DNA of 64,000 nucleotides from positions 1,165 through 65,164 of the forward strand of contig JAGLXM010000075.1 in the NCBI GenBank assembly GCA_023132915.1. Direction: 5' to 3'. Position numbers and translations under genes: made by a program. The stretch is from Candidatus Bipolaricaulota bacterium. Its GTDB lineage: Bacteria > Bipolaricaulota > Bipolaricaulia > UBA7950 > UBA9294. The stretch's first letter is position 1. Each line of letters opens with the position of its first letter. The notes under the pieces were generated by a model that was not told the DNA's origin, ran no database searches, and saw only the letters and a list, made by a program, of their open reading frames with translations. Positions 1 through 61,377 of the stretch are shown here, one piece after another.

Positions 1-1
1 G

Positions 2-187
2 CAAATCAGGGACCGGGGGATAGAGGCGTTGGCTAAAGCCCTGGGACCCGTGGGTATGGTTCGTTTTCTTCAGCAATTCGATACCGGAAGCGGTGACTAC
101 ACACATGATCGAGAGCAATGGCTGAAAGAAATTAGCGTCCGAGACGCAGTGGGAGAAATCAAGAGGCAACGCGGAAAATCGAGTTAG
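2..187 (+). CDS. 3' end of a small TA-associated protein, cut by the window edge; paralog of ORF 41237..41452
   Basis: Frame open from the window edge to TAG 185-187. Translation ..ALGPVGMVRFLQQFDTGSGDYTHDREQW.. aligns with ..HLGPAKATRFWIALGGGAGDYLQIKETL.. of 41237..41452. Confidence 0.45.
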   Translation, partial: QIRDRGIEALAKALGPVGMVRFLQQFDTGSGDYTHDREQWLKEISVRDAVGEIKRQRGKSS

Positions 188-239
188 CTAACCGTCCTAC
201 AAGGTAGCCTAACGTTCATTCCTCAGGTTCTTTACGGAG

Positions 240-660
240 CGTACTCTACCCACTACCGAGGTGTTCCATGACCCATGACCCATCACTCACCGCCCTTGGA
301 CTGTCGACTATTGACTCAAGACTCCCGACTGTCTTGATCACCGGTGACTATCAGGAGTATTATGATAAGGTATATGGCAGGGAGTGAATGAGCTTGATTA
401 GAGCGGTAGGGCAGTTAGGCACTGGCCGCTAGCGGCAAGGTAGCAATCAGTCGTCAACACTTAGCCTATTGCTTAAAGCTGATAGCTAAAAGCTTTAACC
501 CAATGAACCCCTGCCCCGTGCAATGACGGAAAATAGATTATTTCACGGGGCTACGAACTCCATGAACCCAACAAGCCACGAACTACGCACTGCAAACTAC
601 CAACCACAAACTGAGAACCAGGAACTCCGGACCCTGGGCATCGGACTGAATGGGTGCGTG
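240..660. repeat. Composite low-complexity intergenic region made of short 7-9 nt periodic word arrays
   Basis: 267-291 catgacc catgacc catcact cacc. 475-496 aaagctgatagctaaaagcttt. From 551, ctacgaac tccatgaac ccaacaagc cacgaac... These are reverse-complement relatives of the modules at 61378-61550 and 63501-63760. Confidence 0.6.
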
Positions 661-781
661 TAATGAGTGATTTGTGATGGCAACGAGCGAAAAACTGAGG
701 AATCACAAGGATTTGAAGACTGGAGGGGTAATTCTGTTCTCTGGCGTAGATATCGGTATTGCAGAGACCTGAAAAGAAAAC

Positions 782-1636
782 ATGTTGAGAAACATTAAGT
801 TCTTGAATGGATCTAACGCAGTTCCCCCGACTGTTATCCAGCCGTCTCGTGGGCTGCTCTCTCTGAAGCTAGGCGAGCTTTGGCGGTATCGCGAACTACT
901 TTATTTTCTCACCTGGCGGGATGTAAAGATTCGCTATAAGCAAGCCGTCCTTGGGTTTCTGTGGGCGTTCATCCAACCTTTCTTAAAGATGGTTGTCTTC
1001 AGCGTGGTTTTTGGAGGGTTGGCGAAGATGGACTCGGAAGGATTTCCCTATCCCATCTTTCTCTACGCTGGCCTTCTCCCTTGGCAGTTCTTCGCCGACG
1101 CAGTGAATCGGAGCGGACAGAGCATCGTCAGCGAAGCCAATCTGATCACCAAGGTCTATTTCCCCAGGATTATCATGCCGGTAGCCTCGGTGGGGGCGGC
1201 GCTTGTAGACTTCGGGATCTCGTTTGGGATATTGATCGCTATGATGTTTTATTTCCAGCTGAGTCCCAGCCTCTCGATTCTGATGGTGCTACCCCTCGTT
1301 TTGATAACAATTCTTGCCGTCCTTGGTGTGGGAATATTGGTGAGTGCCCTAAACACTGCTTATCGTGATTTCCGGTACGCTCTCCCATTCCTCGTCCAGA
1401 TCTGGATGTTCTTAACCCCGGTTATATACTCAGTTAAAATCATCCCGGAAAACTGGCGGTGGCTAATTTTACTGAACCCTATGGCTGGCATTGTCGACGC
1501 CTACCGGTCGGCAATTTTAGGAAAGCCGTTTGCATGGGGTAATCTTGGGATCTCATTGGGGATAGCCACGATCATGTTCCTGATCGGGCTGGCATATTTT
1601 CGCAAAACAGAGAGGTATTTTGCTGATGTTGTGTAG
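782..1636 (+). CDS. wzm: ABC-2 type polysaccharide/O-antigen export permease (Wzm/TagG/KpsM-like)
   Basis: 284 aa, multi-TM. N-terminal ..ELWRYRELLYFLTWRDVKIRYKQAVLGFLWAFIQP.. is the typical ABC-2 permease signature. Paired with wzt downstream. Confidence 0.9.
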   Translation: MLRNIKFLNGSNAVPPTVIQPSRGLLSLKLGELWRYRELLYFLTWRDVKIRYKQAVLGFLWAFIQPFLKMVVFSVVFGGLAKMDSEGFPYPIFLYAGLLPWQFFADAVNRSGQSIVSEANLITKVYFPRIIMPVASVGAALVDFGISFGILIAMMFYFQLSPSLSILMVLPLVLITILAVLGVGILVSALNTAYRDFRYALPFLVQIWMFLTPVIYSVKIIPENWRWLILLNPMAGIVDAYRSAILGKPFAWGNLGISLGIATIMFLIGLAYFRKTERYFADVV

Positions 1637-1646
1637 CGCAAAGGCG

Positions 1647-1669
1647 GACCGATGACCGAGGACAGGTGA
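1647..1669. repeat. Left arm of the inverted repeat bracketing the four-helix-bundle ORF
   Basis: GACCGATGACCGAGGACAGGTGA (heptamer-periodic GACCGAT/GACCGAG/GACAGGT) pairs at 19 of 23 positions with 2044-2066. Confidence 0.65.
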
Positions 1670-1679
1670 CCGAAAACAG

Positions 1680-2090
1680 ATGTCCACCACATACAAGTTC
1701 CAGGATCTGCGGGTGTACAAGTTAGCATTGGAGTATGTGGATACCGTGTACAAGTTGAGCGGGAGCCTGCCGCAGTCGGAGCACTTTAATCTCCGATCGC
1801 AACTGGAACGAGCAGCAACTTCTGTGGTGCTAAACATCGCAGAAGGGTCAACGGGGCAAAGTAATGCAGAACAGAACCGTTTTCTAGGGCTAGCACTGAG
1901 ATCTTACTTAGAAACGATAGCCTGTCTTGACATTATTGGACAGCGAGGCTACCTAGCGAGTAATGCAACTACAGAAGTAAGGAAACTGGGGCATGAGCTT
2001 TTCGTCAAGCTGCAGTCTTTCCGGCGGGCTTTGAAGGCTCCCCTCTCCGGTCCTCGGTCTTCAGTCTCCCATCAGGAGGTCGAATCATGA
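1680..2090 (+). CDS. Four-helix-bundle protein (23S rRNA intervening-sequence protein family, PF05635-like)
   Basis: 136 aa. FQDLRVYKLALEYV...LRSQLERAATSVVLNIAEGS...RFLGLALRSYLETIACLDI matches the family pattern. Its stop overlaps the ATG of the wzt remnant (ATGA). Confidence 0.85.
   Translation: MSTTYKFQDLRVYKLALEYVDTVYKLSGSLPQSEHFNLRSQLERAATSVVLNIAEGSTGQSNAEQNRFLGLALRSYLETIACLDIIGQRGYLASNATTEVRKLGHELFVKLQSFRRALKAPLSGPRSSVSHQEVES
2044..2066. repeat. Right arm of the inverted repeat bracketing the four-helix-bundle ORF (inside its 3' end)
   Basis: TCTCCGGTCCTCGGTCTTCAGTC is complementary to 1647-1669 (19/23). Confidence 0.65.
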
Positions 2091-2239
2091 CCGACACAGC
2101 TATCAGAGTCGAGAACCTCTCCAAACGCTACCGCATCGGCCAATACGTTGGCAGCGGTGCTTCCAATTGTCTCAGGCCTTGGGGGTTGTCGAGCGAGGAG
2201 CACAAGGTGATTGGTGATATGGTTGGGGAGGAAGAATAG
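2087..2239 (+). pseudogene. 5' remnant of a wzt allele (first ~25 codons), then unrelated sequence to a stop
   Basis: MTDTAIRVENLSKRYRIGQYVGSGA.. versus intact Wzt MSNNIAIRVENLSKRYRIGQYVGSGA.. The nucleotide match gagaacctc..aaacgctaccgcatcggccaatacg..ggcagcggtgc is near-identical to 3207-3256. Confidence 0.75.
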
Positions 2240-2241
2240 GA

Positions 2242-2604
2242 ATGGTTACCCGGATCAAGAAAGTCGATCGCTTAGTGATCCAAGAAATTGTGGATCGCAT
2301 AGTTGCTTCTGTTCACCCGGAGAAGATCATCCTTTTCGGCTCCTACGCCTATGGCCAGCCCCACAATGATAGCGACCTCGACATTCTTGTTATCGTGGAG
2401 TCATGTCTTCCCCGATACAAGCGAGCCGTGCCCATCTACAACTCCTTGGCTGGGTTGCTCATACCCAAGGACGTGGTTGTGTATACGCCGGAGGAGGTCG
2501 AGGCCTGGAGCAATGTCCCGCAAGCGTTCATTACAACCGTGATGAATAAAGGAAGGATTCTTTATGAAAAACAGCAAAGCCGACCTGGTTCGCGGATGGC
2601 TTGA
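2242..2604 (+). CDS. Nucleotidyltransferase-domain protein (MNT-type antitoxin)
   Basis: 120 aa. ..LFGSYAYGQPHNDSDLDILVIV.. is the GS-X-DxD minimal nucleotidyltransferase motif. Overlaps the HEPN partner. Confidence 0.85.
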   Translation: MVTRIKKVDRLVIQEIVDRIVASVHPEKIILFGSYAYGQPHNDSDLDILVIVESCLPRYKRAVPIYNSLAGLLIPKDVVVYTPEEVEAWSNVPQAFITTVMNKGRILYEKQQSRPGSRMA

Positions 2605-2974
2605 GAAAGCAAGAAGAGATCTTCTTACAGCGGAGAGAGGGCTAAACTCTGCGGAGCCGTTTACGGATATAGTATGCTTCCACGCCCAGCAAGCGACAGA
2701 GAAGCACTTAAAGGCCTACTTGCTTTGGCATGGAATCGAATTCCCCAGGACACACGCCCTTGAAGACCTCGTGCTTCTTGCGGCTGAGAAGGATGCTGAC
2801 TTCGCACTGCATAAAGACGAGGTGACAATGCTTACCCCTTACGCGGTGGAGACTCGTTACCCCGAGTTCGAAGAGCCTTTGCTGGAGGATGCAAGAGAGA
2901 TGGTTCGTATTGCAAGAGGAATCCGAGACTTTGTGTTGGTGAAGCTGCCCGAAACGCTTACAGGCACGGAATAA
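2564..2974 (+). CDS. HEPN-domain protein (toxin partner of MNT)
   Basis: 136 aa. ..CFHAQQATEKHLKAYL...PRTHALEDL.. is a HEPN R-x4-6-H-like motif. Overlaps the MNT gene by 41 nt. Confidence 0.85.
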   Translation: MKNSKADLVRGWLEKARRDLLTAERGLNSAEPFTDIVCFHAQQATEKHLKAYLLWHGIEFPRTHALEDLVLLAAEKDADFALHKDEVTMLTPYAVETRYPEFEEPLLEDAREMVRIARGIRDFVLVKLPETLTGTE

Positions 2975-3046
2975 TGACGTATGAGGTAGTATCATGCCAC
3001 CGCTTGTTGCAGCTAGAATTTTGTGGGAGATGGAAGGTGAATTCTG

Positions 3047-3125
3047 ATCCGCAATTCACATTTCGAAACTGCCGTTTTCCTCTTGCGATTCGAAATTCGC
3101 TTTTCGCAATTCGAAATTGGAGCTT
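3047..3125. repeat. Low-complexity repeat upstream of wzt (GCAATTCGAAAT-type words)
   Basis: ccgcaattcacatttcgaaa .. gcgattcgaaattcgc ttttcgcaattcgaaattgg, with repeated TTCGAA cores just 5' of the wzt start. Confidence 0.45.
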
Positions 3126-3179
3126 TTCAATCCTCAATGCATATCTCAACGAATATAACAAACGGAACAAATCAGACTA

Positions 3180-4535
3180 ATGAGTAACAATATTGCCATC
3201 CGTGTTGAGAACCTCAGCAAACGCTACCGCATCGGCCAATACGTCGGCAGCGGTGCGCAATACAAGACCCTGCGCGAGAGCCTGACCAATGCTGTCTCCG
3301 CGCCCCTGCATTGGCTACGCCAGACAGGAGACAGAAGACGGAAGACCGATCTCCCGTCGCCAGCCCCCCGTCTCCGGTCCTCTGTCGCCGGTCAGCCGTC
3401 TACCGACGGCTACATCTGGGCCCTCAAGGACGTTTCTTTCGAGGTGGGACACGGCGAGGTGGTGGGCATCATCGGTAGAAACGGTGCGGGGAAGAGTACG
3501 CTTCTAAAGGTGTTGACCCGTATCACGGAGCCCACCGAAGGGCGGGCGGAGCTAAGCGGCCGTGTGGGGAGTCTGCTGGAAGTAGGGACGGGATTTCACC
3601 CTGAACTCACCGGGCGAGAGAATGTATACTTGAGCGGTGCGATTCTTGGGATGGCACGAAAAGAGATTGATCGGAAGTTTGACGAGATTGTCGACTTCTC
3701 CGGAGTGGAGAAGTTCATTGATACGCCGGTCAAGCGCTATTCCAGCGGTATGCGCGTCAGGCTCGGGTTTGCGGTGGCTGCCCACCTGGAGCCGGAGATT
3801 CTATTGATAGATGAAGTTCTGGCGGTGGGAGACGTAGCGTTCCAGAAAAAATGTCTAGGGAAAATGGAAGATGTGGCCCGGGGTGGCAGAACTGTGCTTT
3901 TTGTGTCACATAATATGGGCATGATAACCATTCTCTGTGAAAAAGCGATATTACTAACGGAAGGGCGTATTGACTTTATGGGGCCAGCTCAACAGACCGT
4001 AAGCACGTATTTGGCTAACTTTAGCGCAGATGCTGGCCTGAAAAGGAGATGGAGTTTTGAAGAAGCCCCTGGCGAAGAGAATGTCAAAATAAGAAGCGTT
4101 GCGATAACTGATCATCTGGGTATTGAGAAACCGTATTTTTCGACCGCTGAACCGATATTCGTTACGATAGAGTATTGGGTTTTAGCTGATGACATTCCAG
4201 TCAACGTAGGATTCAGTTTGCTTGACAAAGAAGATAATTGGGTTTGTGCGGTCGGCAATTATGAGGAGACAAGATCAAAGCCAATTCGAAAGAGTGGATT
4301 ATACAGGTCGAAATGCACAATTCCTGGGAATTTGTTGAATAGTGGCAGGCATTCAATCACAGTGACGGCAGTAAGAAATCTTACAGATCTTCAGGTGAGA
4401 ATATCTCATTGTGTTGCCTTTGAAGCAGTGGACGATCGTCGAGTTCACCCGTACTCTGGTAGATGGGGAGGAATTATAAAACCCGAATTTGAGTGGCATA
4501 GCGAGAAGGTTGGCGATGTTGGAGGAGAGGAATAG
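3180..4535 (+). CDS. wzt: O-antigen/polysaccharide ABC exporter ATP-binding protein Wzt with C-terminal carbohydrate-binding-type extension
   Basis: 451 aa. Walker A GRNGAGKST, signature YSSGM, Walker B LLIDEVLAVGD, then ~180 aa of beta-rich C-terminal domain (..VKIRSVAITD..FVTIEYWV..NVGFSLLDKE..). Confidence 0.9.
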   Translation: MSNNIAIRVENLSKRYRIGQYVGSGAQYKTLRESLTNAVSAPLHWLRQTGDRRRKTDLPSPAPRLRSSVAGQPSTDGYIWALKDVSFEVGHGEVVGIIGRNGAGKSTLLKVLTRITEPTEGRAELSGRVGSLLEVGTGFHPELTGRENVYLSGAILGMARKEIDRKFDEIVDFSGVEKFIDTPVKRYSSGMRVRLGFAVAAHLEPEILLIDEVLAVGDVAFQKKCLGKMEDVARGGRTVLFVSHNMGMITILCEKAILLTEGRIDFMGPAQQTVSTYLANFSADAGLKRRWSFEEAPGEENVKIRSVAITDHLGIEKPYFSTAEPIFVTIEYWVLADDIPVNVGFSLLDKEDNWVCAVGNYEETRSKPIRKSGLYRSKCTIPGNLLNSGRHSITVTAVRNLTDLQVRISHCVAFEAVDDRRVHPYSGRWGGIIKPEFEWHSEKVGDVGGEE

Positions 4536-4566
4536 GTACTTTGAATCTCCATCCGGAAGGCGAGGA

Positions 4567-5781
4567 ATGAATACTAATAAACGTCTTTCTGTGCATCATA
4601 TCGGGGGAAGGTCTGGGAGTAGAGCGTTTCCCGTTTTAAGGAGGTTCGAAGAAGACATTATAAATGTGCTCTACGATGCCGATCCTGACTGTCTTGCGCA
4701 AATCCAGGAGAGAAATCAAAACCTCGGATCAGAACTTCATGTTCTGCCATATTGCTTGGGTGATGCCTGTAAACAAGCTCTGTTCAATATTAACTACGAC
4801 CCATATACCAGTTCACTCTATGACCCAAACCCTGACTACAATTCATTCTATAGCACTCAGAGGGACCATGACTACATTTTTTCAGAAGCCACTAGGGTCA
4901 TGGAGAAACGTCGCGTTGAGACTGTGAGCATAGACTACATTTTCCAATCAAAAAACGTTCCAATGCCGCCACCTGATTTTCTTTCGATCGATACGCAGGG
5001 ATCAGAATACGACATACTACTGGGAGCGAAAGAGACTCTAGAATCAAGTGTCGTAGCATTGGTTATCGAGGTTGAGTTTCATCCAATCTATAGAGGTCAA
5101 AGACTCTTTGGGGACTTGGTAAAACTACTGTCCGAGCAAGGATTTGACTTTGTAAGGTTTCTTCATACGGGCGAGTTGTCCCCATTCAGAGCCCCGATTG
5201 GCCTCCGTGGTGAAGGGTTTCACATATGGGCTGAGGCCCTTTTCTTCAGACGGATAGATAATATGGATAGAATTGGAGACGAACTTAGACGCTACGTCAT
5301 GTTGAGAAAACTAGCCTTCATAGCTATCATATTTAACCAATTTGAATATGGCTTGCAATGTTTGAGCCGATGCAGAGCCCTAGGGATTCAAGATTCAATT
5401 GTGGAGGAATTAGAGGATCTCTCCTATTGCAAGTTCTTGAGGGATCTTGAAACGAAAATGAAAGGGATGCCAGTAGTCTTCCCCGAGACATTTGCTTCAA
5501 AATACACATTTGAGGCAAGTAAAGCACGCTTTGAAAGGTGTTTTGCTCATACTAACACAGGAGTGATACGCAGTATCAAAGCAGTACTGAAGCCGATTCC
5601 CATCCTGTTTCCGTTACTAAAGGGGATTAAACAAGGATTCATCAAGGTAGCTACTGCTGTTAAGTCGATTTCGTTGAAGAGATATTCTGAGGTTGAGGCT
5701 CTTTTGATTAGTTACGGCTTAAAGAGTCAAGCGGAGACACTTCGGGAGAATAGGGTTGTTCAATCGCAATTCTGTGAATAG
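4567..5781 (+). CDS. FkbM-family methyltransferase
   Basis: ..HHIGGRSGS.. and ..PDFLSIDTQGSEYDILLGA..ALVIEVEF.. motifs. Paralog of 14571..15788. The track ORF begins at 4489, but ATG 4567 has an RBS-like ggaaggcgagg and matches the paralog's length. Confidence 0.8.
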   Translation: MNTNKRLSVHHIGGRSGSRAFPVLRRFEEDIINVLYDADPDCLAQIQERNQNLGSELHVLPYCLGDACKQALFNINYDPYTSSLYDPNPDYNSFYSTQRDHDYIFSEATRVMEKRRVETVSIDYIFQSKNVPMPPPDFLSIDTQGSEYDILLGAKETLESSVVALVIEVEFHPIYRGQRLFGDLVKLLSEQGFDFVRFLHTGELSPFRAPIGLRGEGFHIWAEALFFRRIDNMDRIGDELRRYVMLRKLAFIAIIFNQFEYGLQCLSRCRALGIQDSIVEELEDLSYCKFLRDLETKMKGMPVVFPETFASKYTFEASKARFERCFAHTNTGVIRSIKAVLKPIPILFPLLKGIKQGFIKVATAVKSISLKRYSEVEALLISYGLKSQAETLRENRVVQSQFCE

Positions 5782-5918
5782 TTGTCGTTTTTTGGCCCTT
5801 TTGCGCTCAGTCTGGAGCAGAATCGCCGGAAAAGCGTAAAGCGATCTCCAGCCATTTCCAGCCCAGATGAAACGATGCCGATAATGCTAGCTAGCTTCAA
5901 TCTCAAGGAGTTACGATA

Positions 5919-7109
5919 ATGTCCCACTCACAACAGTACCTTAAGCAAGTAGCTCAGATTGCACAAGCTATCGAGCATGAAACCGTGGAAAGAATCGCAG
6001 TAGGTCTGGGTCAGTTGCGCGACAGGGGCGGGCGGTTGTTCCTGTTGGGAGTAGGAGGGGGCGCTGCTAACTGCAGTCACGCCGTCAACGACTTTCGGAA
6101 ACTTACCGGTATTGAGGCCTATAGCCCTTGCGACAACGTCGCAGAGTTGACCGCTCGGACCAACGACGAAGGATGGTCTACGGTGTTCGAGGCCTGGCTG
6201 CGAACTAGTAAAGCGAACGAGAAGGACGCGGTGTTCGTGTTCTCTGTCGGGGGTGGCGACGCCGATCGCGATGTGAGCGTTAATATCGTTCGTGGTCTAG
6301 ACGAAGCAAAGCGTCGCGGCCTAACAATTTACGGAATTGTGGGCCGGGACGGAGGATATACCAAGCAAGTGGGTGACGAGGTGATTGTAGTGCCAATGGT
6401 GGATTCGGGTCACGTCACTCCACACACAGAGTCCTTCCAAGCAGTCATCTGGCACTGTATTGTCTGCCATCCCAGTCTTATGATCCAAGAGGGCAAGTGG
6501 GAGAGCTTGGCTACAACCAAGGTCTCAGCACCTCTGAGCCGGGCGGTGTTTCTGGATCGGGATGGCGTTATCAACCTCGCAGTGCTGCATAATGGCCGTC
6601 CCTACCCCCCATCTTCAGTCGATGAACTGGAGTTCCTGCCAGGAGTTTCTGAAGCGATCAATGCGTTGCATCAAGCTGGTTTTCGCATAATCGTAGCGAC
6701 GAACCAACCGGATGTTGCTACGGGAGTGCAGCGACGTGAAGTAGTGGAGGCTATACACGAACGCATCCGCCGTGCGTTCCCGATTGACGACATCAAAGTC
6801 TGTTATCACGTCGATCAGGACGGCTGCACATGCCGAAAGCCGAAGCCGGGAATGCTCTTGGAAGCGGCGGAAGAGTGGTCACTGAACCTCGAGCAATCAT
6901 TCATGGTAGGCGACCGCTGGCGTGACATAGAGGCCGGCCGAGCTGCGGGGTGTAGAACTATTCTGGTCAAGAGCAACTACGCTGAGCAACAGGCTGGAAA
7001 GCCTGACGCAATTGTTAGTTCATTGCTGGAGGCGAGTGCTTTTATTCTGACAAATAGCGTACAGGATACCCCAGCGGGAGGTAAACTATGCCAGATCTCA
7101 GAGATGTGA
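5919..7109 (+). CDS. Fusion of a SIS-domain phosphoheptose isomerase (GmhA-like) and D,D-heptose 1,7-bisphosphate phosphatase (GmhB-like)
   Basis: N-terminal half LFLLGVGGGAANCSHAVNDFRK (SIS). C-terminal half VFLDRDGVIN..VATNQPDVA..CYH..CTCRKPKPGM..MVGDRWRDIEAG (HAD/GmhB with Zn-site cysteines). Confidence 0.8.
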   Translation: MSHSQQYLKQVAQIAQAIEHETVERIAVGLGQLRDRGGRLFLLGVGGGAANCSHAVNDFRKLTGIEAYSPCDNVAELTARTNDEGWSTVFEAWLRTSKANEKDAVFVFSVGGGDADRDVSVNIVRGLDEAKRRGLTIYGIVGRDGGYTKQVGDEVIVVPMVDSGHVTPHTESFQAVIWHCIVCHPSLMIQEGKWESLATTKVSAPLSRAVFLDRDGVINLAVLHNGRPYPPSSVDELEFLPGVSEAINALHQAGFRIIVATNQPDVATGVQRREVVEAIHERIRRAFPIDDIKVCYHVDQDGCTCRKPKPGMLLEAAEEWSLNLEQSFMVGDRWRDIEAGRAAGCRTILVKSNYAEQQAGKPDAIVSSLLEASAFILTNSVQDTPAGGKLCQISEM

Positions 7110-8905: not shown

Positions 8906-9921
8906 GCCAGGACAAGACTGCTGTAGTGACCGGTGCAGCCGGATTCATCGGCAGCCACATGGTGGATTTGCTTCTCGATCATGGTTACAAGGTGCGCGCC
9001 GTTGATAATCTCTCGACTGGGCGTTTGGAGAATCTTGAGCACTGCAAATCTGATCCCAATCTGATCTTCGAAGCCCGAGATCTGAGAGACATGCGTCCCG
9101 ATGCCCCCCTGTTTCGAGGGGCAGATTATGTCTTCCATTTTGCTGGTATCGGAGACATTGTCCCCTCCATCGAGCAACCTACAGATTATCTTTCTGCCAA
9201 CGTCATGGGTACTGTCCATGCTCTTGAAGCCGCACGGCACGCAGGCGTCCGAAAGTTCATTTACGCAGCGTCCTCCTCATGCTATGGATTGGCAATCGAG
9301 CTCCCGACGACCGAACAGGCCGAAATCAGCCCTCAATATCCCTATGCCCTTAGCAAACACCTGGGTGAACAAGCTGTCAGACACTGGGGAAAAGTTTATC
9401 GTCTGCCAGTGATTTCTATTCGTATCTTCAACGCATACGGGCTACGATCCCGTACGACGGGAGCCTATGGCGCAGTATTTGGTGTGTTTTTCGCGCAGAA
9501 GCTAGCCGGGAAACCGTTTACCGTGGTCGGTGATGGTACCCAAAGACGCGACTTCGTTTTTGTAACTGATGTCGCTCGGGCGTTCCTGCTGGCGGCGGAG
9601 TCCGGCCGGACGAATGAAATTTACAACCTCGGCGCCGGCAATCCCCAGCCCGTAAACCGTCTGGTTGAACTGCTGGGCGGAGAGGTGGTGCATATATCGA
9701 AACGTCCAGGTGAGCCTGATTGCACCTGGGCGGATATTTCGAAAATTCGCAGTGAGCTAGGGTGGGAACCATGCGTTTCATTCGAAGAGGGCGTGGCCAT
9801 CATGCTCCGCAACATCGAATACTGGCGTAACGCCCCCGTGTGGGATCCCGTGTCCATCCAGGCTGCCACGGAGAACTGGTTTGCCTTACTCTCGGAGGAG
9901 AGAGATGGCAGTAACGACTGA
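8902..9921 (+). CDS. NAD-dependent epimerase/dehydratase (extended SDR)
   Basis: 339 aa. VVTGAAGFIGSH and YALSK (YxxxK). 4-nt overlap with the upstream gene. Confidence 0.8.
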   Translation: MSQDKTAVVTGAAGFIGSHMVDLLLDHGYKVRAVDNLSTGRLENLEHCKSDPNLIFEARDLRDMRPDAPLFRGADYVFHFAGIGDIVPSIEQPTDYLSANVMGTVHALEAARHAGVRKFIYAASSSCYGLAIELPTTEQAEISPQYPYALSKHLGEQAVRHWGKVYRLPVISIRIFNAYGLRSRTTGAYGAVFGVFFAQKLAGKPFTVVGDGTQRRDFVFVTDVARAFLLAAESGRTNEIYNLGAGNPQPVNRLVELLGGEVVHISKRPGEPDCTWADISKIRSELGWEPCVSFEEGVAIMLRNIEYWRNAPVWDPVSIQAATENWFALLSEERDGSND

Positions 9922-11461: not shown

Positions 11462-12378
11462 GAACAGTGATTGTTGGCTTGGGAATCCAAGGCAATAAGC
11501 GGATGGCTATCGCGGGTGAGGATGTTGTCGCGACTGTGGATCCAATCGTATCGAAAGCCCAGTACAGAACCATCGATCAAGTTCCTCTCGAATCTTTTGA
11601 CGCTGCTCTCGTCTGTACGCCGGATCAAGCCAAGCTTGACACTCTAAGGTATCTTCTCTCACATGGTAAGCAGGTTCTCGTCGAAAAGCCGCTGCTGAGC
11701 GCTGACAGAACGCAGCTTTGCCAGCTTGATGAGATTGCTCGATCTGCTGGGGTTGCCTGTTACACTGCTTACAATCACAGATTCGAGCCACATATCATGC
11801 GCCTTAAGGGATTGCTGGATAAACGGAGCCTGGGGAACATCTACCTAGCCAAGTTCTTCTACGGCAATGGGACGGCACTCGACGTCAAGCGCTCTCCCTG
11901 GCGCGATCAAGGGCTTGGTGTGGTGCCCGATTTAGGGTCACACCTGTTGGACATGGCGCTCTTCTTATTTGGACAAACGGGCAAGTTCGAGCCTTGGAAT
12001 TACAATCGCTTCGAGAACAACGCTTTTGACCATTTCCTGTTTGGATCCTCTGGCAGGCCTGTGCTAGAACTTGAAATGACCTTCCTGTCATGGCGGAACA
12101 CCTTCACTGCTGATGTTTTCGGCGAATTGGGCAGTGCACACATCAACTGCCTCTGCAAGTGGGGTCCGAGCACATTCACTGTTCGCAAGAGGGTCTTCCC
12201 AAGTGGAAAGCCTGACAAGGATATGCAAACTATCGAATGTGCTGACCCAACCTGGGCGACAGAATATCAGTACTTCAAGGACTTGTGTCGGACTGGTGGC
12301 ACCAATATCGAAAATGATATCTGGATACAGTCGGTACTAAGTGATATCGCACAAGCTGTCGGAGAGGAATTGATCTGA
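11458..12378 (+). CDS. Gfo/Idh/MocA-family oxidoreductase
   Basis: 306 aa. N-terminal VIVGLGIQG Rossmann motif, EKP motif (VLVEKPL), AYNHRF. Confidence 0.65.
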   Translation: MRTVIVGLGIQGNKRMAIAGEDVVATVDPIVSKAQYRTIDQVPLESFDAALVCTPDQAKLDTLRYLLSHGKQVLVEKPLLSADRTQLCQLDEIARSAGVACYTAYNHRFEPHIMRLKGLLDKRSLGNIYLAKFFYGNGTALDVKRSPWRDQGLGVVPDLGSHLLDMALFLFGQTGKFEPWNYNRFENNAFDHFLFGSSGRPVLELEMTFLSWRNTFTADVFGELGSAHINCLCKWGPSTFTVRKRVFPSGKPDKDMQTIECADPTWATEYQYFKDLCRTGGTNIENDIWIQSVLSDIAQAVGEELI

Positions 12379-13664
12379 TGATTGGCTTTGCTGGGCTTTC
12401 TCACCTGGGTATCGTGTCGAGCATAGCTGCTGCTTCAAAGGGCTGTGAAATAGTCGCCCATGATCCCGATCCAGCGCTTTGCGACAGGCTTAGTAACGGA
12501 CACCTGCCGATCTTGGAGCCAGATCTGCCCGATCTCTTGGCAGCCAACCGTTCGCGCATCCGATTCACCTCCGATGCTACTGCACTGAGCAAATGCGAAC
12601 TGATTGTTTTCTCTGTGGACGTAGCCACTGATAAGGACAACTACAGTGATCTTTCGCCTCTTCAGCAGTTGATCGACAAGGTTGTTGCTCACGTGTCGCC
12701 GGGTACCGTGCTGGTCGTTCTGAGCCAGGTGCCGCCCGGGTTTACCCGTAAGCAGGCCGACAAGCTCAAACGTCTCCACGATGACCATGGTGTTCAATTA
12801 TTTTGCCAGGTGGAAACACTGATCTTTGGCTGTGCCGTTGAACGCGCCTTACATCCCGAACGTTTTATAATCGGATGCTCAAATCCTGAGCTGCCGATAC
12901 CTCCTCCGTTGAATACTTATCTGAAATCATTTGGTTGTCCAATTTTACCCATGCGCTATGAGACTGCGGAACTTGCAAAGATATCGATCAACATGTGTTT
13001 AGTAGCATCAATCAGCGTGGCAAACACTCTGGCTGAAATTTGTGAAAAAATTGGCGCCGACTGGTCCGAGATCGTGCCTGCGCTTCGCCTTGACAAACGC
13101 ATCGGTCAATATGCCTATCTGAATCCCGGTCTTGGGATTTCAGGCGGCAATTTGGAACGTGACCTTGCTACGGTGTTGCGCTACGCGGAGAAATACAAAA
13201 CGGATGGGGGTGTGGTCGCATCATGGATAAAAAATTCCCACCATCGCAAAGAGTGGGCATGGGCTACCTTCAAAAACCTTGGACTTGATAAAAATCCGGC
13301 TGAGAGGATAGCCGTGTTGGGTCTTACTTATAAGGAAAATACACATTCCCTCAAAAACTCTCCCTCACTGGTTTTTTTGTCGCATTTAACTGATCGTGAG
13401 GTAGTGGCCTTCGACCCGGTAGCGGTATCTGATGCCACAGGTCCTAAAGTTCTTCGTACAAGTACTGCACTCGAGGCTATTAAGGGGGTCGATGTTTTGG
13501 CTATCATGACCCCCTGGCCGGAGTTTTGCTTGATTACCCCAGAAATTCTTGTGCAAAACATGATTGGCCGCACGGTGATTGATCCTTATCGGATGCTGGA
13601 TGGCATGGCGCTAAAGGCTCAAGGTTTCATTTACGCGACGCTGGGAGCGCCGGTTAGGGAATAA
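12378..13664 (+). CDS. Nucleotide-sugar dehydrogenase (UDP-glucose/GDP-mannose dehydrogenase family)
   Basis: 428 aa. N-terminal GFAGLSHLG and a C-terminal ..LGLTYKENTHSLKNSP.. UDPG_MGDP_dh_C-like segment. Confidence 0.8.
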   Translation: MIGFAGLSHLGIVSSIAAASKGCEIVAHDPDPALCDRLSNGHLPILEPDLPDLLAANRSRIRFTSDATALSKCELIVFSVDVATDKDNYSDLSPLQQLIDKVVAHVSPGTVLVVLSQVPPGFTRKQADKLKRLHDDHGVQLFCQVETLIFGCAVERALHPERFIIGCSNPELPIPPPLNTYLKSFGCPILPMRYETAELAKISINMCLVASISVANTLAEICEKIGADWSEIVPALRLDKRIGQYAYLNPGLGISGGNLERDLATVLRYAEKYKTDGGVVASWIKNSHHRKEWAWATFKNLGLDKNPAERIAVLGLTYKENTHSLKNSPSLVFLSHLTDREVVAFDPVAVSDATGPKVLRTSTALEAIKGVDVLAIMTPWPEFCLITPEILVQNMIGRTVIDPYRMLDGMALKAQGFIYATLGAPVRE

Positions 13665-15800: not shown

Positions 15801-16364
15801 TACAGTTATATAAATCCTGGTCTTGGTATATCGGGTGGCAACCTTGAAAGAGATCTTGCTACGGTGTTATGCCTTTCAGAGTCCCATGGGACAGATGCCA
15901 GCCCAGTATCTGTTTGGCTGCGCAACAGTCGCCATCGTAAGAACTGGCCCTTCAAAACCCTGGAGCGGATGGTTTTAAAGGGAAATCCTGAAGCATCAAT
16001 AGCGGTTCTTGGTCTGGCCTATAAGGAAAACACCCATAGTACGAAGAATTCTCCAGCACTCGTATTGATCGAGCAACTGTCTGCTTGCAAAGTAACGGTC
16101 TATGATCCCATTGTTCCTGCAACGGTTGTGGGGGATCATGTGATCGGGGCGGCTTCGGCCCTTGATGCTGTAAATGGTGCAGAAGCCCTGGTGATCATCA
16201 CGCCGTGGCCTGAGTTTAAAAAAATTAGGCCGACAGACATAAAGAGCAGGATGAAAGGGCGCGTTGTTATTGACCCTCACCGGATGCTTGATGCTGGGGA
16301 GGTAGAGGCAGCCGGCCTTGATTATGCTACCCTCGGTATGCCGCCGGTAACTGCCAAACGCTGA
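15801..16364 (+). pseudogene. 3' fragment (about the last 185 codons) of a nucleotide-sugar dehydrogenase, paralog of 12378..13664
   Basis: YSYINPGLGISGGNLERDLATVL..NSRHRKNWPF..AVLGLAYKENTHSTKNSPAL.. parallels YAYLNPGLGISGGNLERDLATVL..NSHHRKEWAW..AVLGLTYKENTHSLKNSPSL.. . Homology starts right after the FkbM stop and the N-terminal ~250 aa are absent. Confidence 0.8.
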
Positions 16365-32090: not shown

Positions 32091-32592
<502 letters not shown>

Positions 32593-34424
32593 CTGGCCCG
32601 ACTTTGACAACGCCAAACGAGAAGTGCTGTTCCGAAGGGCAATACAGGGATCGTCAAGGTCGCGTGGCACTACGCTTTGGGTCAGCGAGCGTCTCAGTCG
32701 AGTCGTTCGATCCGTCGAGGAGGGACGATCTTCAGCGCCTGGAACGCTGCCATGCTGACAGCGGGGATCTCGTCGCGCATTCGGTAGCGGCTTCCGTTGC
32801 CGTCATCTAGCACCACCGCCCGCACCCGCGACAGTCCCTCCATTAGCTCGACGAACGACCCGTCGAACGATCGCTCCGCCAACCGCTTCTTGAGGATCTG
32901 CCGTAGGATGAACGCGAGGAAGCAAACGGTGATGTGCCCACGGACCCGTTGCGCGGTCCAGTGGTAGATCGGACGAAGCTCCAGCGGTGTCTTCAGCATC
33001 CGGGACGCTTCCTCCACCTGCCACAGCCTCTTGTACGCCACCGCCGCCTCGGCAGCCGTCAGTCGGGCGTCGTTGGTCCGTAGCACCCACTTCCCGTCGT
33101 AGCGAGCATCCGCTTCGATCTTCCGTCGATCGAGTGATGCTCCACCGGCCTGGGTCCGTACGTACCGCCGTGCCGCTCCTCGCAGCAACCCCTTCACCGA
33201 TCCCGTCTCCAGGCGCTTGCTGAGCATCTCAACGATCGCTTCCCGTTCCCGTCGGTCCGCCTCCACCGCCTCGGGGTTGCGACAGACGATGTAGCGGTCC
33301 TCGACATCGGGAAGGTCGACCTCTTTCACCTCGAGGTTGTCGGCGACGGTGTGGTAGCGTCCCGAGTGGGACAGGACCTCCTGGGCGACCTTGTCTCGTC
33401 GCAGCTTCGTCGCCACCAGGTACGGCATCCCAACTTCACGCAACGCTTGCAGGTTCGCCTCGGTCACCATCCCACGATCACAGCAGAGCATCACTCGTTT
33501 CACTCCGAGCGTCTCTCGTACCGCCTCAACCGCCAGACGAAACGCTGAGGGGTCGGCGGTGTTCCCCGGGAAGATCACGTGGGCCACCGGAAGTCCTTTC
33601 CTCGTCATTACCACCCCCAGGCCGACTTGCCGTCGATCCCCGCGGTGATCTCGCGAGTAGCCAAACGCTGCCAACTCCTCGGGGTGGGTCCCTTCCACGT
33701 ACGTCGAAGTGGTGTCGAAGTACAACAGATCGGTGTCGGTGAACAGATCCCGATGACGGGCGAACCATCCCGCCTCGACGTCATTCTTCACCTCGGCGAG
33801 GCGATCGAGTGAGCGGTACAGATCGTGCAGTTCGAGATCGTCAAACGGCGCACCGTAGACGTCGTCGCGGAAGCGCAGCGCAGCGCACTTCGATCCCGGA
33901 TCGACCAGTCGATGCAGCACCATCAAGTAGACAGCATCCGCCTGTCGTTGCGTAAGTCCGGCGTCCTTGATGATCGGAGCGAACGTCTCCATCCACAAGC
34001 GCCCCCACACCAGCGAAGCTCCCCAGATCCGTGTCTCCACTCTGGATCGATCGCTGAGGAGGATCGATTCGAGCTCGGCGTAGCGGTTCGCAGTCTCTAC
34101 CAGCGAACCGAGACCCTTGCGCAGCCGTGGATCGTCAGTCCGTCCCAGTGTGGCCAGCACCCGTTGGCGGGTCTTTCCATCGACGCGGCGGTTCTCGACG
34201 AGTTGGAGGTAGGTGGTAACGGTGCCATCCTGGTTGCGTCGCTTCTTCTCGCGGATGAACATGACACCTCATGATACCACACATTCATCAGGCAGAGAAG
34301 GGGACATCCATCACTAACGTGGCACCACAAAGCACCTCTCAAACGACCCTCGACACTACCGAAACCCAGTTCCCTTGGCATCGAGGTATCCAGAAAGCGC
34401 CGATTCTTGTCAAAGTCGGGCCAG
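32593..34424 (-). mobile_element. IS1634-family insertion sequence with perfect 18-bp terminal inverted repeats
   Basis: CTGGCCCGACTTTGACAA at 32593-32610 and its exact reverse complement TTGTCAAAGTCGGGCCAG at 34407-34424. Single 522-aa transposase inside. Visibly GC-richer than its surroundings. No matching flanking direct repeat seen. Confidence 0.85.
32694..34262 (-). CDS. IS1634-family (IS4-like DDE) transposase
   Basis: 522 aa. N-terminus MFIREKKRRNQDGTVTTYLQLVENRRVDGKTRQRVLATLGR is typical of IS1634 transposases. Confidence 0.9.
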   Translation of the reverse strand: MFIREKKRRNQDGTVTTYLQLVENRRVDGKTRQRVLATLGRTDDPRLRKGLGSLVETANRYAELESILLSDRSRVETRIWGASLVWGRLWMETFAPIIKDAGLTQRQADAVYLMVLHRLVDPGSKCAALRFRDDVYGAPFDDLELHDLYRSLDRLAEVKNDVEAGWFARHRDLFTDTDLLYFDTTSTYVEGTHPEELAAFGYSRDHRGDRRQVGLGVVMTRKGLPVAHVIFPGNTADPSAFRLAVEAVRETLGVKRVMLCCDRGMVTEANLQALREVGMPYLVATKLRRDKVAQEVLSHSGRYHTVADNLEVKEVDLPDVEDRYIVCRNPEAVEADRREREAIVEMLSKRLETGSVKGLLRGAARRYVRTQAGGASLDRRKIEADARYDGKWVLRTNDARLTAAEAAVAYKRLWQVEEASRMLKTPLELRPIYHWTAQRVRGHITVCFLAFILRQILKKRLAERSFDGSFVELMEGLSRVRAVVLDDGNGSRYRMRDEIPAVSMAAFQALKIVPPRRIERLD

Positions 34425-40696: not shown

Positions 40697-40797
40697 GGAA
40701 ATTGTTGAGTAGTTGAGTGGGAAAAGCGAAGGAACGGAGGGCCAGGTGAAGAGGGAAATGGTTAAGTGGAGGAGTGGTTGAGTGGGAGGAATGGATG
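40687..40797. repeat. GTTGAGTRG-word low-complexity repeat; left terminal inverted repeat of the gmd|fcl insertion
   Basis: agttgagtagggaaattgttgagtagttgagtgggaaaagc .. ggttaagtggaggagtggttgagtggg. Its outer part is the reverse complement of 42006-42039. It supplies the gmd stop codon. Confidence 0.65.
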
Positions 40798-41262
40798 AGT
40801 CCACGTCGTCTATATCTAGACACCAGTGTCTATAACCGACCCTTCGATGGCCTCTCACAAGCACGAGTCTGGCTCGAAGCGTTAGCCTTCGCTACTATAC
40901 TGCAGATGATTGAATTGGGCGGTGTAGAATTAGTAAGCTCTGAGGTATTAGAGTTTGAGAACAGCAGGAATCCCTTTTCCCATAGAAGGGCGTGGGTAAG
41001 CTTTTATCTGAGTTTGGCCAAAGATTACCAGGAATTGGATGAGTCGATCCGTAAGCGAGCGCAAGGTTTGGAAAGCAAGAGATTGGAACCACTCGATGCT
41101 TTACATCTGGCCTGTGCAGAGGGAGCTGAGGCTGAATATTTCATAACCTGCGATGATCGGATCATAAAGAGATACCAAGGGGAAGCACTGAAAGTGATGA
41201 ACCCCGTGAATTTTGTGATCAGTGAGGTGATAGGAGATGGCGGAGATCAAGGTGAACAGTGA
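40795..41262 (+). CDS. PIN-like domain protein (putative toxin)
   Basis: About 155 aa. LYLDTSVYNRPFD.. N-terminal acidic motif, ..DALHLACAEGAEAEYFITCDDRIIKR.. C-terminal PIN-like motif. Confidence 0.6.
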   Translation: MSPRRLYLDTSVYNRPFDGLSQARVWLEALAFATILQMIELGGVELVSSEVLEFENSRNPFSHRRAWVSFYLSLAKDYQELDESIRKRAQGLESKRLEPLDALHLACAEGAEAEYFITCDDRIIKRYQGEALKVMNPVNFVISEVIGDGGDQGEQ

Positions 41263-41452
41263 TCAGGAGATCCTTCGAGAGGCCGAAGAGGTGCTGCGGG
41301 TACATCTGGGTCCGGCCAAAGCGACTCGCTTTTGGATCGCTCTAGGCGGTGGGGCTGGAGACTACCTGCAAATTAAAGAAACGCTCTTCAAAGGCGAGAC
41401 TGTCGATACCCTGTACGAGAAAATAGCAGAGCAGAAGGGGGAGGAGAGATAG
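41237..41452 (+). CDS. Small partner protein of the PIN gene (putative antitoxin, uncharacterised family)
   Basis: 71 aa. Overlaps the PIN gene by 26 nt. A paralogous 3' end occurs at 2..187. Confidence 0.45.
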   Translation: MAEIKVNSDQEILREAEEVLRVHLGPAKATRFWIALGGGAGDYLQIKETLFKGETVDTLYEKIAEQKGEER

Positions 41453-41535
41453 TTAAGTAGGAAAATAGTTGAGTGGTTATGTGGGGCAGTGGAACTATTC
41501 AACGATTTAACTAATCAACCACTTAACTAATCCCA
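41451..41535. repeat. Imperfect palindrome of GTTRAGTRG words immediately 5' of the four-helix-bundle pseudogene
   Basis: agttaagtaggaaaatagttgagtggttatgtgggg ... ttaactaatcaaccacttaactaatccc. The two arms are reverse complements (tagttgagtggtt versus aaccacttaacta). Confidence 0.65.
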
Positions 41536-51525: not shown

Positions 51526-51708
51526 ATGAGCTCTCAGCTATTCCTTAAGCGAGGGTTAGACTTTACTATAAGTTTTGTCGGGCTCATCCTCCTTGCTATG
51601 CCCTTTGCCATCATCGCTCTAGCGATCAAGCTCGACTCCAAGGGCCCAGTTTTCTTCAGGCAGGAGGGGACCAGAGGTTGTCTTGAGCATGGTGACTTGC
51701 TATCTTAG
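51526..51708 (+). pseudogene. 5' stub (about 46 codons) of a third PglC-type phosphoglycosyltransferase copy
   Basis: MSSQLFLKRGLDFTISFVGLILLAMPFAIIALAIKLDSKGPVFFRQE matches the N-termini of 44434.. and 52117.., then diverges to a stop. Confidence 0.8.
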
Positions 51709-51746
51709 AGGTGCCGTTAAATCATCGGCCTAAAGGAGGGAGCAAT

Positions 51747-52013
51747 ATGCCCTTGAAATTGATTAGAACCGAGAGAACAAGCGAGGAAGATCTGCAGAGG
51801 TTCAAGGCGGATCAGGAGGACTTTGAGTGGCTTGTCAGGCATTCGCGAGAGATTGAAGAGCAGTCTAAGGGGAAATATATCGCTGTCGTGAATAAAGAGG
51901 TCTTTGTGGGAGATAGCTTTGAGGAAGCGGAGCAGAAGGCTAAGGCAAAATATCCGGAGCGCGATTCCTATGTGGAATTCATCCCGCTGAAGCCGCGGGT
52001 GATGGTTCTATGA
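51747..52013 (+). CDS. Small hypothetical protein (DUF5678-like pattern)
   Basis: 88 aa from ATG 51747 (RBS aaaggaggg). ..WLVRHSREIEEQSKGKYIAVVNKEVFVGDSFEEAEQKAKAKYPERDSYVEFIP.. . Family assignment is from memory of the pattern only. Confidence 0.45.
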   Translation: MPLKLIRTERTSEEDLQRFKADQEDFEWLVRHSREIEEQSKGKYIAVVNKEVFVGDSFEEAEQKAKAKYPERDSYVEFIPLKPRVMVL

Positions 52014-52120
52014 TCTTCCACGGCCGATACCGTGTCGCCATCTTCGACAGGGGCAAAGATGATGTGATCCTGCTCGACCATCCGGATAGCTACCGAATCG
52101 AACGCTCTCTTGAAAGATGA
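52010..52120 (+). CDS. 36-codon ORF coupled by ATGA overlaps to both neighbours
   Basis: MIFHGRYRVAIFDRGKDDVILLDHPDSYRIERSLER. ATG 52010 overlaps the upstream stop, and its TGA 52118-52120 overlaps ATG 52117 of the sugar transferase. Confidence 0.3.
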   Translation: MIFHGRYRVAIFDRGKDDVILLDHPDSYRIERSLER

Positions 52121-52776
52121 AGGGTTCCATCGGTTTGCCTGTTCAGCTAATTCTAAAACGGCTTGTCGATATCCTGCTAAGCCTCATTGGGCTTATCCTC
52201 TTGATTGTTCCCTTCGCTGTGATCGCCCTGGCGATGAAGCTTGACTCCAGGGGCCCAGTGTTCTTCCGGCAAGAGCGTGTGGGAAAAGATGGCAGGGTAT
52301 TTAAGCCTTGGAAGTTCCGCACGATGGTTGTTGGGGCGGTGAAGCAAGGGCTGGGTTACAACATCGCTCAGGGTGATCCGCGGATTACTAAGGTTGGGCG
52401 GTTCTTGAGAAGCTGGGGGGTAGATGAACTTCCCCAGCTCATCAATGTGTTGAAGGGCGAGATGAGCATCGTCGGCCCGCGGCCGACCTTAAAATACCAG
52501 GTCGAGAGGTACAACGACTTCCAACGCAAACGTCTTCTGGTCAAGCCTGGGATCACCGGCTGGGCCCTGATCCATGGGCGAAATCTTTTGACCTGGGAGG
52601 AGCGAATCAAATACGACGTCTGGTATGTAGATCATCGGACAATCTGGCTTGATCTTTGGGTCATGCTCAAGACGTTATGGGTGGTGCTGATCAAGCGGGA
52701 AGGGGTCTACAGCTCAGAAGGGATCAATGACCCATTTGTGACACCGCCTCAGGAAGGGCCACCCCATGATGTGTAA
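52117..52776 (+). CDS. Undecaprenyl-phosphate sugar phosphotransferase, small monotopic PglC/WbaP-C type (intact copy)
   Basis: 219 aa. ..GPVFFRQERVGKDGRVFKPWKFRTM.., ..DELPQLINVLKGEMSIVGPRP.., ..KPGITGWA.. . Confidence 0.9.
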   Translation: MKGSIGLPVQLILKRLVDILLSLIGLILLIVPFAVIALAMKLDSRGPVFFRQERVGKDGRVFKPWKFRTMVVGAVKQGLGYNIAQGDPRITKVGRFLRSWGVDELPQLINVLKGEMSIVGPRPTLKYQVERYNDFQRKRLLVKPGITGWALIHGRNLLTWEERIKYDVWYVDHRTIWLDLWVMLKTLWVVLIKREGVYSSEGINDPFVTPPQEGPPHDV

Positions 52777-61352: not shown

Positions 61353-61377
61353 CAATTGCGGTTTACTTGATGTAGGG

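Follow-up and report, generated by a model that had tools for sequence, protein, structure and literature searches.

How does a gene come to have two starts, with a complete pair of predicted toxin-antitoxin genes between them, and still be intact? The question is raised by wzt, the ATPase gene of an O-antigen/polysaccharide exporter, in a 64,000-nucleotide stretch of contig JAGLXM010000075.1 (GenBank assembly GCA_023132915.1) from a Candidatus Bipolaricaulota bacterium. This whole stretch is called the window here, and coordinates refer to it unless another contig is named. Its permease gene wzm is followed by a gene for a four-helix-bundle (4HB) protein, a 50-codon open reading frame (ORF) that begins as wzt does, genes for a minimal nucleotidyltransferase (MNT) and a HEPN-domain protein, a spacer and, finally, an intact wzt. 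We compared this locus with about 50 related environmental contigs, which carry labels of the form L001. The duplicated start is, in our judgement, best interpreted as the scar of a 5'-end displacement that now probably acts as a homology arm for a widely shared cassette, within a hotspot specific to the lineage. Beyond what an initial annotation of the window contained, we observe that conservation is far higher in the cassette than in its flanks, that other cargo occupies other breakpoints in wzt, and that no recombinase gene lies nearby.

The duplicated start of wzt

The two copies of the wzt start match at 55 of 62 nt (89%; 2099–2160 against 3195–3256), which bears out the near-identical repeat that the initial annotation had placed at 2087 and 3180. 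Within the 50-nt block at 2111–2160 and 3207–3256, for which it gave four differences, we count three: two in tcc/agc and one in gtt/gtc. With up to 3 mismatches allowed, the block occurs exactly twice in the 64 kb, compared with 0.00 times in 100 dinucleotide-preserving shuffles. Upstream of the block the copies are unrelated, and the first codons do differ strongly, as had been stated, with MTDTAIRV in the stump and MSNNIAIRV in the intact gene, separated by a one-codon indel. On the other side, homology stops sharply at 2160/3256, and a tblastn match of Wzt to the stump covers residues 6–26 and then ends. The remainder of the short ORF (2161–2241) was considered as a degenerate continuation of wzt, which would shift the breakpoint, and this was rejected, as 230 of 2000 shuffles score equally in local alignment. 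Judged by alignment, the 81-nt tail of the ORF is not derived from wzt.

The short ORF as a whole (2087–2239) overlaps the stop codon of the 4HB gene with its ATG (ATGA) and ends 2 nt short of the MNT start codon. We think that it probably represents a non-functional remnant from the 5' end of the resident wzt allele, whose start is fused to the 4HB gene. For annotation, this would mean that the 50-codon "hypothetical protein" called in all these loci is a wzt pseudogene fragment. The exporter itself is of Wzm/Wzt type: the matches of the ABC-2 permease and the ABC ATPase are both significant, and genes for FkbM, an epimerase and a glycosyltransferase follow downstream, while the Wzt_C domain of the intact wzt reaches 27.8 bits, below the cut-off of 30.4.

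Empty sites and a donor-type start

Two origins had been offered for this arrangement, namely integration of the cassette within the conserved wzt 5' block with a wzt start of its own, or splicing of two alleles of the locus, together with the advice to look for an uninterrupted 4HB-wzt junction. That junction exists. In L118, L095, L100 and L013 the ccatcaggaggtcgaatcATGaccgac context is as at the window stump, and continues directly into an intact wzt. L013 is the only GTDB representative contig with this wzt start and is labelled uncultured Ignavibacteria; the NCBI source name for the identical HEPN protein is Candidatus Bipolaricaulota bacterium, which makes the taxonomic assignment uncertain. 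The start of the intact window gene has a native counterpart as well. In L116 and L117, which lack the stump, wzm is followed by a different 4HB gene with cgaaattcg-type flanks, by an untranslated leader ("leader A") and by a wzt starting with ATGagtaacaatattgccatc. The end of this leader and the ATGagtaacaatattgccatc start are identical to window 3162–3200, including the final 18 nt aligned before the ATG. Over its whole length the leader is 83% identical to that of the window in L117, and 93–97% identical in cassette-bearing loci.

A three-way alignment shows the right-hand wzt copy of the window to be a mosaic, L117-like as far as TACGTC (3246) and L118-like from GGCAGCGGTGCG onward, including the linker. 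The switch maps to 3246–3252, inside the conserved block. Since empty sites exist and the second start is native to L116 and L117, the window can be read as an L118-like allele with an insert from 2161 to about 3246. The alignments thus support the view that two wzt allele classes were spliced here and that the inserted DNA brought its own wzt start; both of the earlier alternatives hold, as they describe one event.

One cassette in many backgrounds

Identities to the window were measured over at least 12 distinct contigs; scanning metagenomes for the block pattern gave 30 contigs. Across loci, nucleotide identity is 99–100% for MNT, 98.5–100% for HEPN and 99–100% for the first 126 nt of the spacer. 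The flanks are far more divergent, at 78–88% for wzm, 77–84% for the 4HB gene and 75–82% for the body of wzt, and the replacement start is often less than 70% identical. Measured by these identities, the cassette is far younger than what surrounds it. The index has the identical MNT protein in 33 blocks, and the protein occurs on at least 22 contigs (ENA, JGI and Logan records), with a stump ORF of 50–51 codons directly upstream in every locus shown, and the identical HEPN protein is found on 13 contigs. The related JGI contigs presumably come from salt-marsh and sediment samples, to go by their names. Across 9,000 nt, the window locus is matched at 100% identity by L124, a contig from a sister sample, and the same layout is found in ENA, JGI, NCBI and Logan records; as far as assembled sequences can tell, it is a population-wide, reproducible layout and not an assembly artefact. 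A separate irregularity is seen at L010 1–93 (JABUBO010016622.1), where the reverse complement of the 4HB 3' end is joined to the last ~25 nt of MNT, either by inversion/deletion or by local misassembly.

The left joint falls at the same nucleotide, immediately after GGCAGCGGKGC, in all nine distinct MNT-junction copies. Eight of these then read TTCCAATTG, and L103/L129 have a diverged 16-nt patch. Just before the joint, AGC is present in 9/9 cassette copies, compared with an AGC:AGT ratio of 10:17 in 27 other distinct copies (Fisher p=0.0012), and GTT in 8/9, compared with a GTT:GTC ratio of 8:19 in the 27 others (Fisher p=0.0046), related copies being counted as independent in both tests. 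The 42 nt that precede the last 13 nt of the left block come in nine versions, behind at least six unrelated upstream contexts. As the last 13 nt are linked to the cassette while the preceding 42 nt vary, points of exchange lie inside the block.

L125 and L126 are identical to the window from the 4HB gene rightwards and differ in their wzm alleles and upstream genes; L011 carries the cassette with no wzm or 4HB gene visible upstream; and the downstream polysaccharide genes of cassette-bearing loci are wholly different (FkbM/HAD, NeuB/PAPS reductase or GT1). More distant relatives of the cassette, with HEPN proteins 78–90% identical, are found at other sites without a wzt stump, that of L131 being located in the simple repeats that follow an L117-type 4HB gene.

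Other cargo within the same 240 nucleotides of wzt

Other cargo is found at five further breakpoints, all within wzt codons 22–79. After TLRE there is a DUF2281/PemK and an antitoxin/PIN pair, 95–99% identical in six contigs with three left contexts. The break after ESLT is that of L098, and the one after GQYVG that of L121. UPF0175/DUF3368 cargo interrupts the low-complexity linker of wzt, and after STDRFI the fusion partner of wzt is a DegT 3' end, with MNT/HepT next in order. True stumps all end at or before Wzt residue 79, at residues 26, 47, 54–59 or 79, and the cargo differs between these classes. Up to two stumps are present per contig (L008, L093, L094, L096 and L105), alternative cargo occupies the site in L096, L105 and L008, and the Wzt C-terminal domains differ among loci. 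The most extensive case is a 13-kb island in L105 (2357–13314 of contig Ga0307434_1000015), with at least 10 toxin-antitoxin-like pairs, several 4HB genes, two wzt stumps, a 5' stump of wecB (9288–9476) and 3' fragments of DegT genes; no intact wzt lies within the stretch fetched for this contig.

That such stumps are a general property of wzt was considered and rejected. Among 80 Wzt loci of GTDB representatives from other phyla, a second Wzt-like N-terminus upstream was found in none, three double motif hits being spurious, and the phenomenon is lineage-specific. In this lineage the hotspot lies where the conserved part of an O-antigen-type cluster meets the serotype-variable part.

Proposed mechanism

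We favour a history in which one illegitimate joint was followed by spread or reassortment through homologous recombination via the duplicated wzt start. About 1.09 kb of foreign DNA would have been joined after nt 74 of the resident wzt, displacing its 5' end. This DNA would have consisted of the 81-nt upstream piece, MNT/HEPN, the 3' simple-repeat region, and the leader and first ~67 nt of the other wzt allele class, and as it brought along a new leader and start, the exporter gene remained intact. The left joint, between GGTGC and TTCC, would have arisen once, probably as an illegitimate, one-sided-homology event in which the foreign DNA was anchored by homology on its right; the route may have been homology-facilitated illegitimate recombination, or a foreign template may have served to repair a break in the wzt 5' part. 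Thereafter the cassette would have lain between two direct copies of the conserved wzt start, which could serve as portable homology arms. Host homologous recombination could bring the unit into any genome whose wzt start is compatible, either "ends-in", as a Campbell-type circle, or by double crossover of linear DNA, and the same process could also swap the flanks of the cassette or delete it precisely. Where such events recur at wzt codons 22–79, stumps and their cargo would stack up into arrays.

The mosaic, the empty site and the linkage pattern are read directly from the sequences; from them we infer the first joint, the direction of transfer, the dependence on RecA and the illegitimate rather than site-specific origin. 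Several points weigh against this history. Neither the parental donor molecule nor the sequence originally to the left of TTCCAATTG was found, so the illegitimate first step is a step that we only infer. The leader is 93–97% identical among cassette-bearing loci and the start often less than 70%, so that additional recombination between cassette and right-hand copy must be assumed. The clustering of breakpoints and the conservation of the block are partly a matter of ascertainment, as the metagenome search required the block itself, and the Fisher tests treat related copies as if they were independent. Finally, the contrast between cassette and flanks could in part stem from hypervariable O-antigen alleles within one species, although that alternative still needs recombination within the same blocks.

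A more far-reaching reading is that of a strategy and not a one-off scar, in which a recombinase-free mobile toxin-antitoxin cassette carries its own chromosomal target, namely the leader and first ~70 nt of the exporter gene. This we regard as conceivable but unlikely. If true, the cassette could insert inside its target gene without inactivating it and renew its two homology arms each time, and the same logic might explain the spread of toxin-antitoxin and 4HB genes through the gene clusters of this lineage. In a bolder version, hairpin-forming simple repeats and/or Avd-like 4HB proteins would actively promote breaks or joints. It is likewise speculation that the palindromic wzt linker induces breaks and in this way causes the clustering of breakpoints.

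Alternative explanations

A joint that breaks at exactly one nucleotide in 9/9 distinct MNT-junction copies is also what site-specific integration would leave, in which a circular MNT/HEPN cassette with an attP-like wzt start is inserted by a recombinase encoded elsewhere, in an integron- or tyrosine-recombinase-like manner, at a core such as GGCAGCGGTGC. The right-hand switch in the window lies within ~6 nt of the same 11-nt sequence, as crossover at a core predicts. However, no integrase or recombinase was called within 10 kb of the cassette or in the fetched flanks of related loci, the only mobility genes being an IS110 transposase at the locus of a 79%-identical relative and, 29 kb from the cassette, the DDE transposase of the window. 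Five different breakpoints hold other cargo; the leader and replacement start, which are expected on the circle, are far less conserved than the cassette; and the last 13 nt before the joint show linkage with the cassette and not with the resident allele. Taken together, these points make site-specific integration improbable. It could also be that an old joint has been inherited vertically with an immobile cassette, around which hypervariable O-antigen genes were swapped within one species. Differing downstream polysaccharide genes and Wzt C-terminal domains are indeed typical of serotype variation, and other gene fragments are present in the window locus. We nonetheless consider this quite unlikely, given that the cassette is missing from close relatives with the same flanks (L118, L095 and L100) and stands behind at least six unrelated upstream contexts, including that of L011, and that wzm and the 4HB gene, which are not serotype genes, are likewise only 77–88% identical. 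Mechanistically, moreover, it is the same recombination viewed from the other side.

Retention of the stump ORF for a use of its own, either as a bridge for translational coupling or as a small protein that belongs to the toxin-antitoxin module, would explain why it is open, with 50–51 codons in all variants, and gene-called in every locus, and why it connects so tightly by the ATGA overlap and the 2-nt gap to the ATG of MNT. Yet its tail protein varies freely (SNCLRP, compared with FGRPKP in L103), its wzt-derived part merely mirrors the local functional alleles, domain searches gave no family match for it, and by simple arithmetic the chance of 27 codons staying open is ~0.27; a function for the stump is therefore very unlikely. 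Closest to negligible is the chance that direct repeats on both sides of the inserted segment reflect transposition with target-site duplication, or that they are the product of an assembly chimera or a collapsed duplication, the outcome that would have undone the initial annotation. The repeat is 62–77 nt long and 11% different within the locus, the start regions of the copies are unrelated, and there is no short identical duplication, while transposase and terminal inverted repeats are both absent. An assembly error is contradicted by the complete identity of L124 over 9,000 nt and by the recurrence of the layout in four sets of records (ENA, JGI, NCBI and Logan).

Relation to known systems

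Displacement of the wzt start followed by homologous exchange, the history preferred here, is a variant of known recombination-driven cassette exchange and not a new kind of system. Its closest parallels are C-terminal displacement arrays of rhs and cdi loci, reportedly described by Jackson in 2009 and by Poole in 2011. In the arrays of rhs, cdi and type VI secretion system (T6SS) loci, as in this one, DNA from outside finds its anchor in a conserved stretch of a gene and displaces the copy already there, leaving stacked partial "orphan" copies. The polarity is reversed, however: here 5' ends are displaced and the stumps stand upstream of the intact gene, whereas there it is 3' ends and immunity genes, which come to stand downstream. 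The target also differs, being an exporter ATPase with toxin-antitoxin and 4HB cargo in one case and a polymorphic toxin with effector tips and immunity genes in the other, and the wzt stumps have no obvious route to reactivation. Displacement with retention of a stump, a pattern known before from polymorphic toxin genes at their 3' ends, can thus strike the 5' end of an ordinary exporter gene. For the T6SS/Rhs/CDI arrays, an integrase-free route of homology-facilitated illegitimate recombination with later homologous exchange has been proposed (Kirchberger 2017, PMC5361080).

In its variable content, its empty sites (L118, L095, L100, L013 and L117), its alternative cargo and the lack of called mobility genes, the locus also resembles the minimal mobile elements, a term said to go back to Saunders and Snyder in 2002. 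Those of Neisseria are variable cassettes without mobility genes that lie between conserved flanks; homologous recombination within these flanks brings about the exchange of the cassettes (PMC3787668). Here, by contrast, both arms are copies of one short target, the wzt start, and one of them is a dead stump. The host is moreover an uncultured sediment bacterium, in which uptake and RecA-dependent transfer are suggested by the mosaic pattern.

Small toxin-antitoxin islets without mobile-element genes have been described at a few permissive spots, with erosion and with homologous recombination at flanking core genes, and the movement of chromosomal toxin-antitoxin cassettes that lack mobile-element genes is still described there as unclear (Belot et al. 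2026, PMC13617665). The present cassettes are similar in their toxin-antitoxin-only cargo without mobility genes and in the erosion of HEPN; insertion within a coding sequence with a replacement start, or stacked stumps of the target, are not described for the islets. The wzt locus is of interest in this respect because its sequences disclose the route: the empty site and the donor-type allele are both at hand, the crossover is mapped, and the cassette is 99–100% identical in backgrounds of 75–88% identity.

The block-cassette-block arrangement is exactly as expected from integration of the Campbell or "ends-in" type, in which a single crossover between circle and chromosome duplicates the segment of homology on both sides of the insert, reversibly, since the repeats can recombine again. 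Such integration is known mostly from engineered plasmids, and we know of no natural toxin-antitoxin cassette described to use 60–80 nt of a gene start in this manner. At this locus a circular form was not seen. With integron cassette arrays and CALINs the cassettes share their small size, their frequent toxin-antitoxin content, one orientation and one insertion point. The breakpoints, however, vary here with the cargo, no gene of the IntI/Phage_integrase family was found within 10 kb of the cassette or in the fetched flanks of related loci, and no attC-like repeat was recognised at the cassette boundaries by inverted-repeat and fold scans, made without an attC model.

The cassette and its spacer

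Coordinates of the main features are collected in Table 1. The MNT and HEPN genes are co-oriented and overlap by 41 nt, and their matches to PF18765/PF01909 and PF05168 are above the cut-offs. They form the complete pair that the initial annotation had recognised, along with a low-complexity spacer, between the two wzt copies. MNT has the catalytic motif GSx10DxD (GSYAYGQPHNDSDLD at residue 33). The NCBIfam MntA equivalog model gives 39 bits, for a cut-off of 60. A regular-expression search of HEPN for the RNase motif Rx4-6H gave no match, only R-T-H at residues 62–64; the nearest solved structure is that of the HEPN protein TT1696 (1UFB). By domains and gene arrangement this is an MNT/HEPN pair, and its toxin-antitoxin activity is presumed. 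The HEPN gene is truncated in L097, L125, L126 and L128 and absent in L109 and L130, which fits the erosion described for toxin-antitoxin islets.

Table 1. Features of the duplicated wzt start, and of the second instance of its layout, in the window.
Feature	Position	Strand	Evidence or remark
wzm, ABC-2 permease of O-antigen/polysaccharide exporter	782..1636	+	PF01061 ABC2_membrane, E=6e-21; conserved left flank
4HB gene (four-helix-bundle, 23S rRNA intervening-sequence protein family)	1680..2090	+	PF05635 E=3e-26, TIGR02436
wzt 5' stump, probably codons 1-25 of resident 4HB-coupled wzt allele	2087..2160	+	conserved block 2099-2160
non-wzt tail of 50-codon stump ORF, left insert end upstream of MNT	2161..2241	+	stop 2237-2239
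MNT, minimal nucleotidyltransferase, predicted antitoxin (Polbeta/NTP_transf_2)	2242..2604	+	PF18765, PF01909
HEPN-domain gene, predicted toxin	2564..2974	+	PF05168 E=1e-25
cassette 3' untranslated part, cgaaattcg-type simple repeats	2975..3100	+	99-100% identical in every locus having it
leader A, native 5' untranslated leader of second wzt allele class	3101..3179	+	alignment to L116/L117
intact wzt, ABC ATPase + Wzt C-terminal domain	3180..4535	+	PF00005 E=2e-23; right block copy 3195-3256
second instance of layout: sugar-transferase stump, DUF5678 gene, 36-codon ORF, intact sugar transferase	51526..52776	+	

The spacer that follows HEPN is 205 nt long and rich in simple repeats. Its part at 2975–3100 is also present in the cassette relative of L131 (HEPN protein 90% identical), and by this distribution the repeat region travels along with the cassette. 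Simple scans of the spacer for promoters and terminators gave no excess above shuffles, and its RNA fold, considered with regard to attC-like hairpins, is no better than that of shuffles (z=-0.77). No terminal inverted repeats were found at the ends of the cassette, and no integrase or transposase was called within 10 kb of the window cassette or in the fetched flanks of near-identical copies.

The 4HB gene and the wzt linker

The 4HB gene upstream of the stump is bracketed by a 23-nt inverted repeat, I2 (1647–1669 and 2044–2066, 83% complementary), which forms a long-range stem in both minimum-free-energy and centroid RNA folds and resembles an rRNA intervening sequence. Each 4HB gene of the window is bracketed by simple-sequence repeats of its own, and related loci have other 4HB types with cgaaattcg-type flanks. 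A search of window 1–6000 against Rfam gave no matches at E<=0.1.

In the N-terminal linker of Wzt there is an in-frame low-complexity insert at ~3311–3400, which is similar to the sequence flanking the 4HB gene on its 3' side (repeat D8); over 14 nt, that flank (2054–2067) and the linker (3336–3349) are 93% complementary. The linker has 68 residues in the window, compared with 33–60 in 63/64 other Wzt proteins, and its RNA fold is somewhat better than that of shuffles (z=-2.56). The insert could be an "empty" hairpin element tolerated within a coding sequence. The alternative linkers of the population, chiefly RQTGD..PGQPST or GDRR..PGQPST as opposed to KSISKFEIRNSKSD, echo the two flavours of repeat around 4HB genes.

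Other features of the window

The initial annotation had pointed to a recurrence of the layout at a sugar-transferase gene (51526/52117), and the stump, the DUF5678 gene and the intact gene are indeed all there. The stump (51526–51709) has 60 codons, covers Bac_transf residues 1–40 and breaks after GPVFFRQE; it is followed by the DUF5678 gene (51747–52013) and the intact sugar transferase (52117–52776). It is 71–74% identical to the other two copies, the third of which is frameshifted and located at 44434–45100. An exact-protein look-up of the DUF5678 cassette found the source contig only.

The polysaccharide cluster is a mosaic holding several pseudogenes. A third CapK-like AMP-binding paralogue lies in pieces at 49763–51320, including a 63-codon CapK_C fragment at ~51129–51320. 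At 15807–16364, a 166-codon ORF corresponds only to the C-terminal domain of a UDP-glucose/GDP-mannose dehydrogenase; over 62 nt this fragment shares 79% identity with the complete ugd-like gene (12378–13664). The second 4HB gene (41538–41911) has an in-frame stop and is flanked by 77-nt direct repeats (41451–41527 and 41921–41997). The only mobility genes of the window, a DDE transposase of 522 aa and an HTH_21 fragment, are located centrally in the cluster (32165–34262, minus strand).

Further cassettes with PIN-domain toxins are interspersed among the glycan genes at 40774–41452 and 61895–62293; after the former come a small ORF that overlaps it and, next, the 4HB pseudogene. Tracts of 9-nt periodicity, of the GGGTTCATT/GAGTTCGTA type or its complement, adjoin toxin-antitoxin cassettes at 61357–61515, 63585–63653 and 541–640, and at 2395–2480 of L008. 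A short ORF ending in ITGDYQEYYDKVYG recurs beside cassettes in several loci, and a ~90-nt intergenic segment (497–586) has two further copies, 93–94% identical, upstream in the same contig. The regions in which these last two observations were made are window 268–387 and 497–586, L011 3–197, L105 10835–11035, and L124 1425–1495 and 3631–3720.

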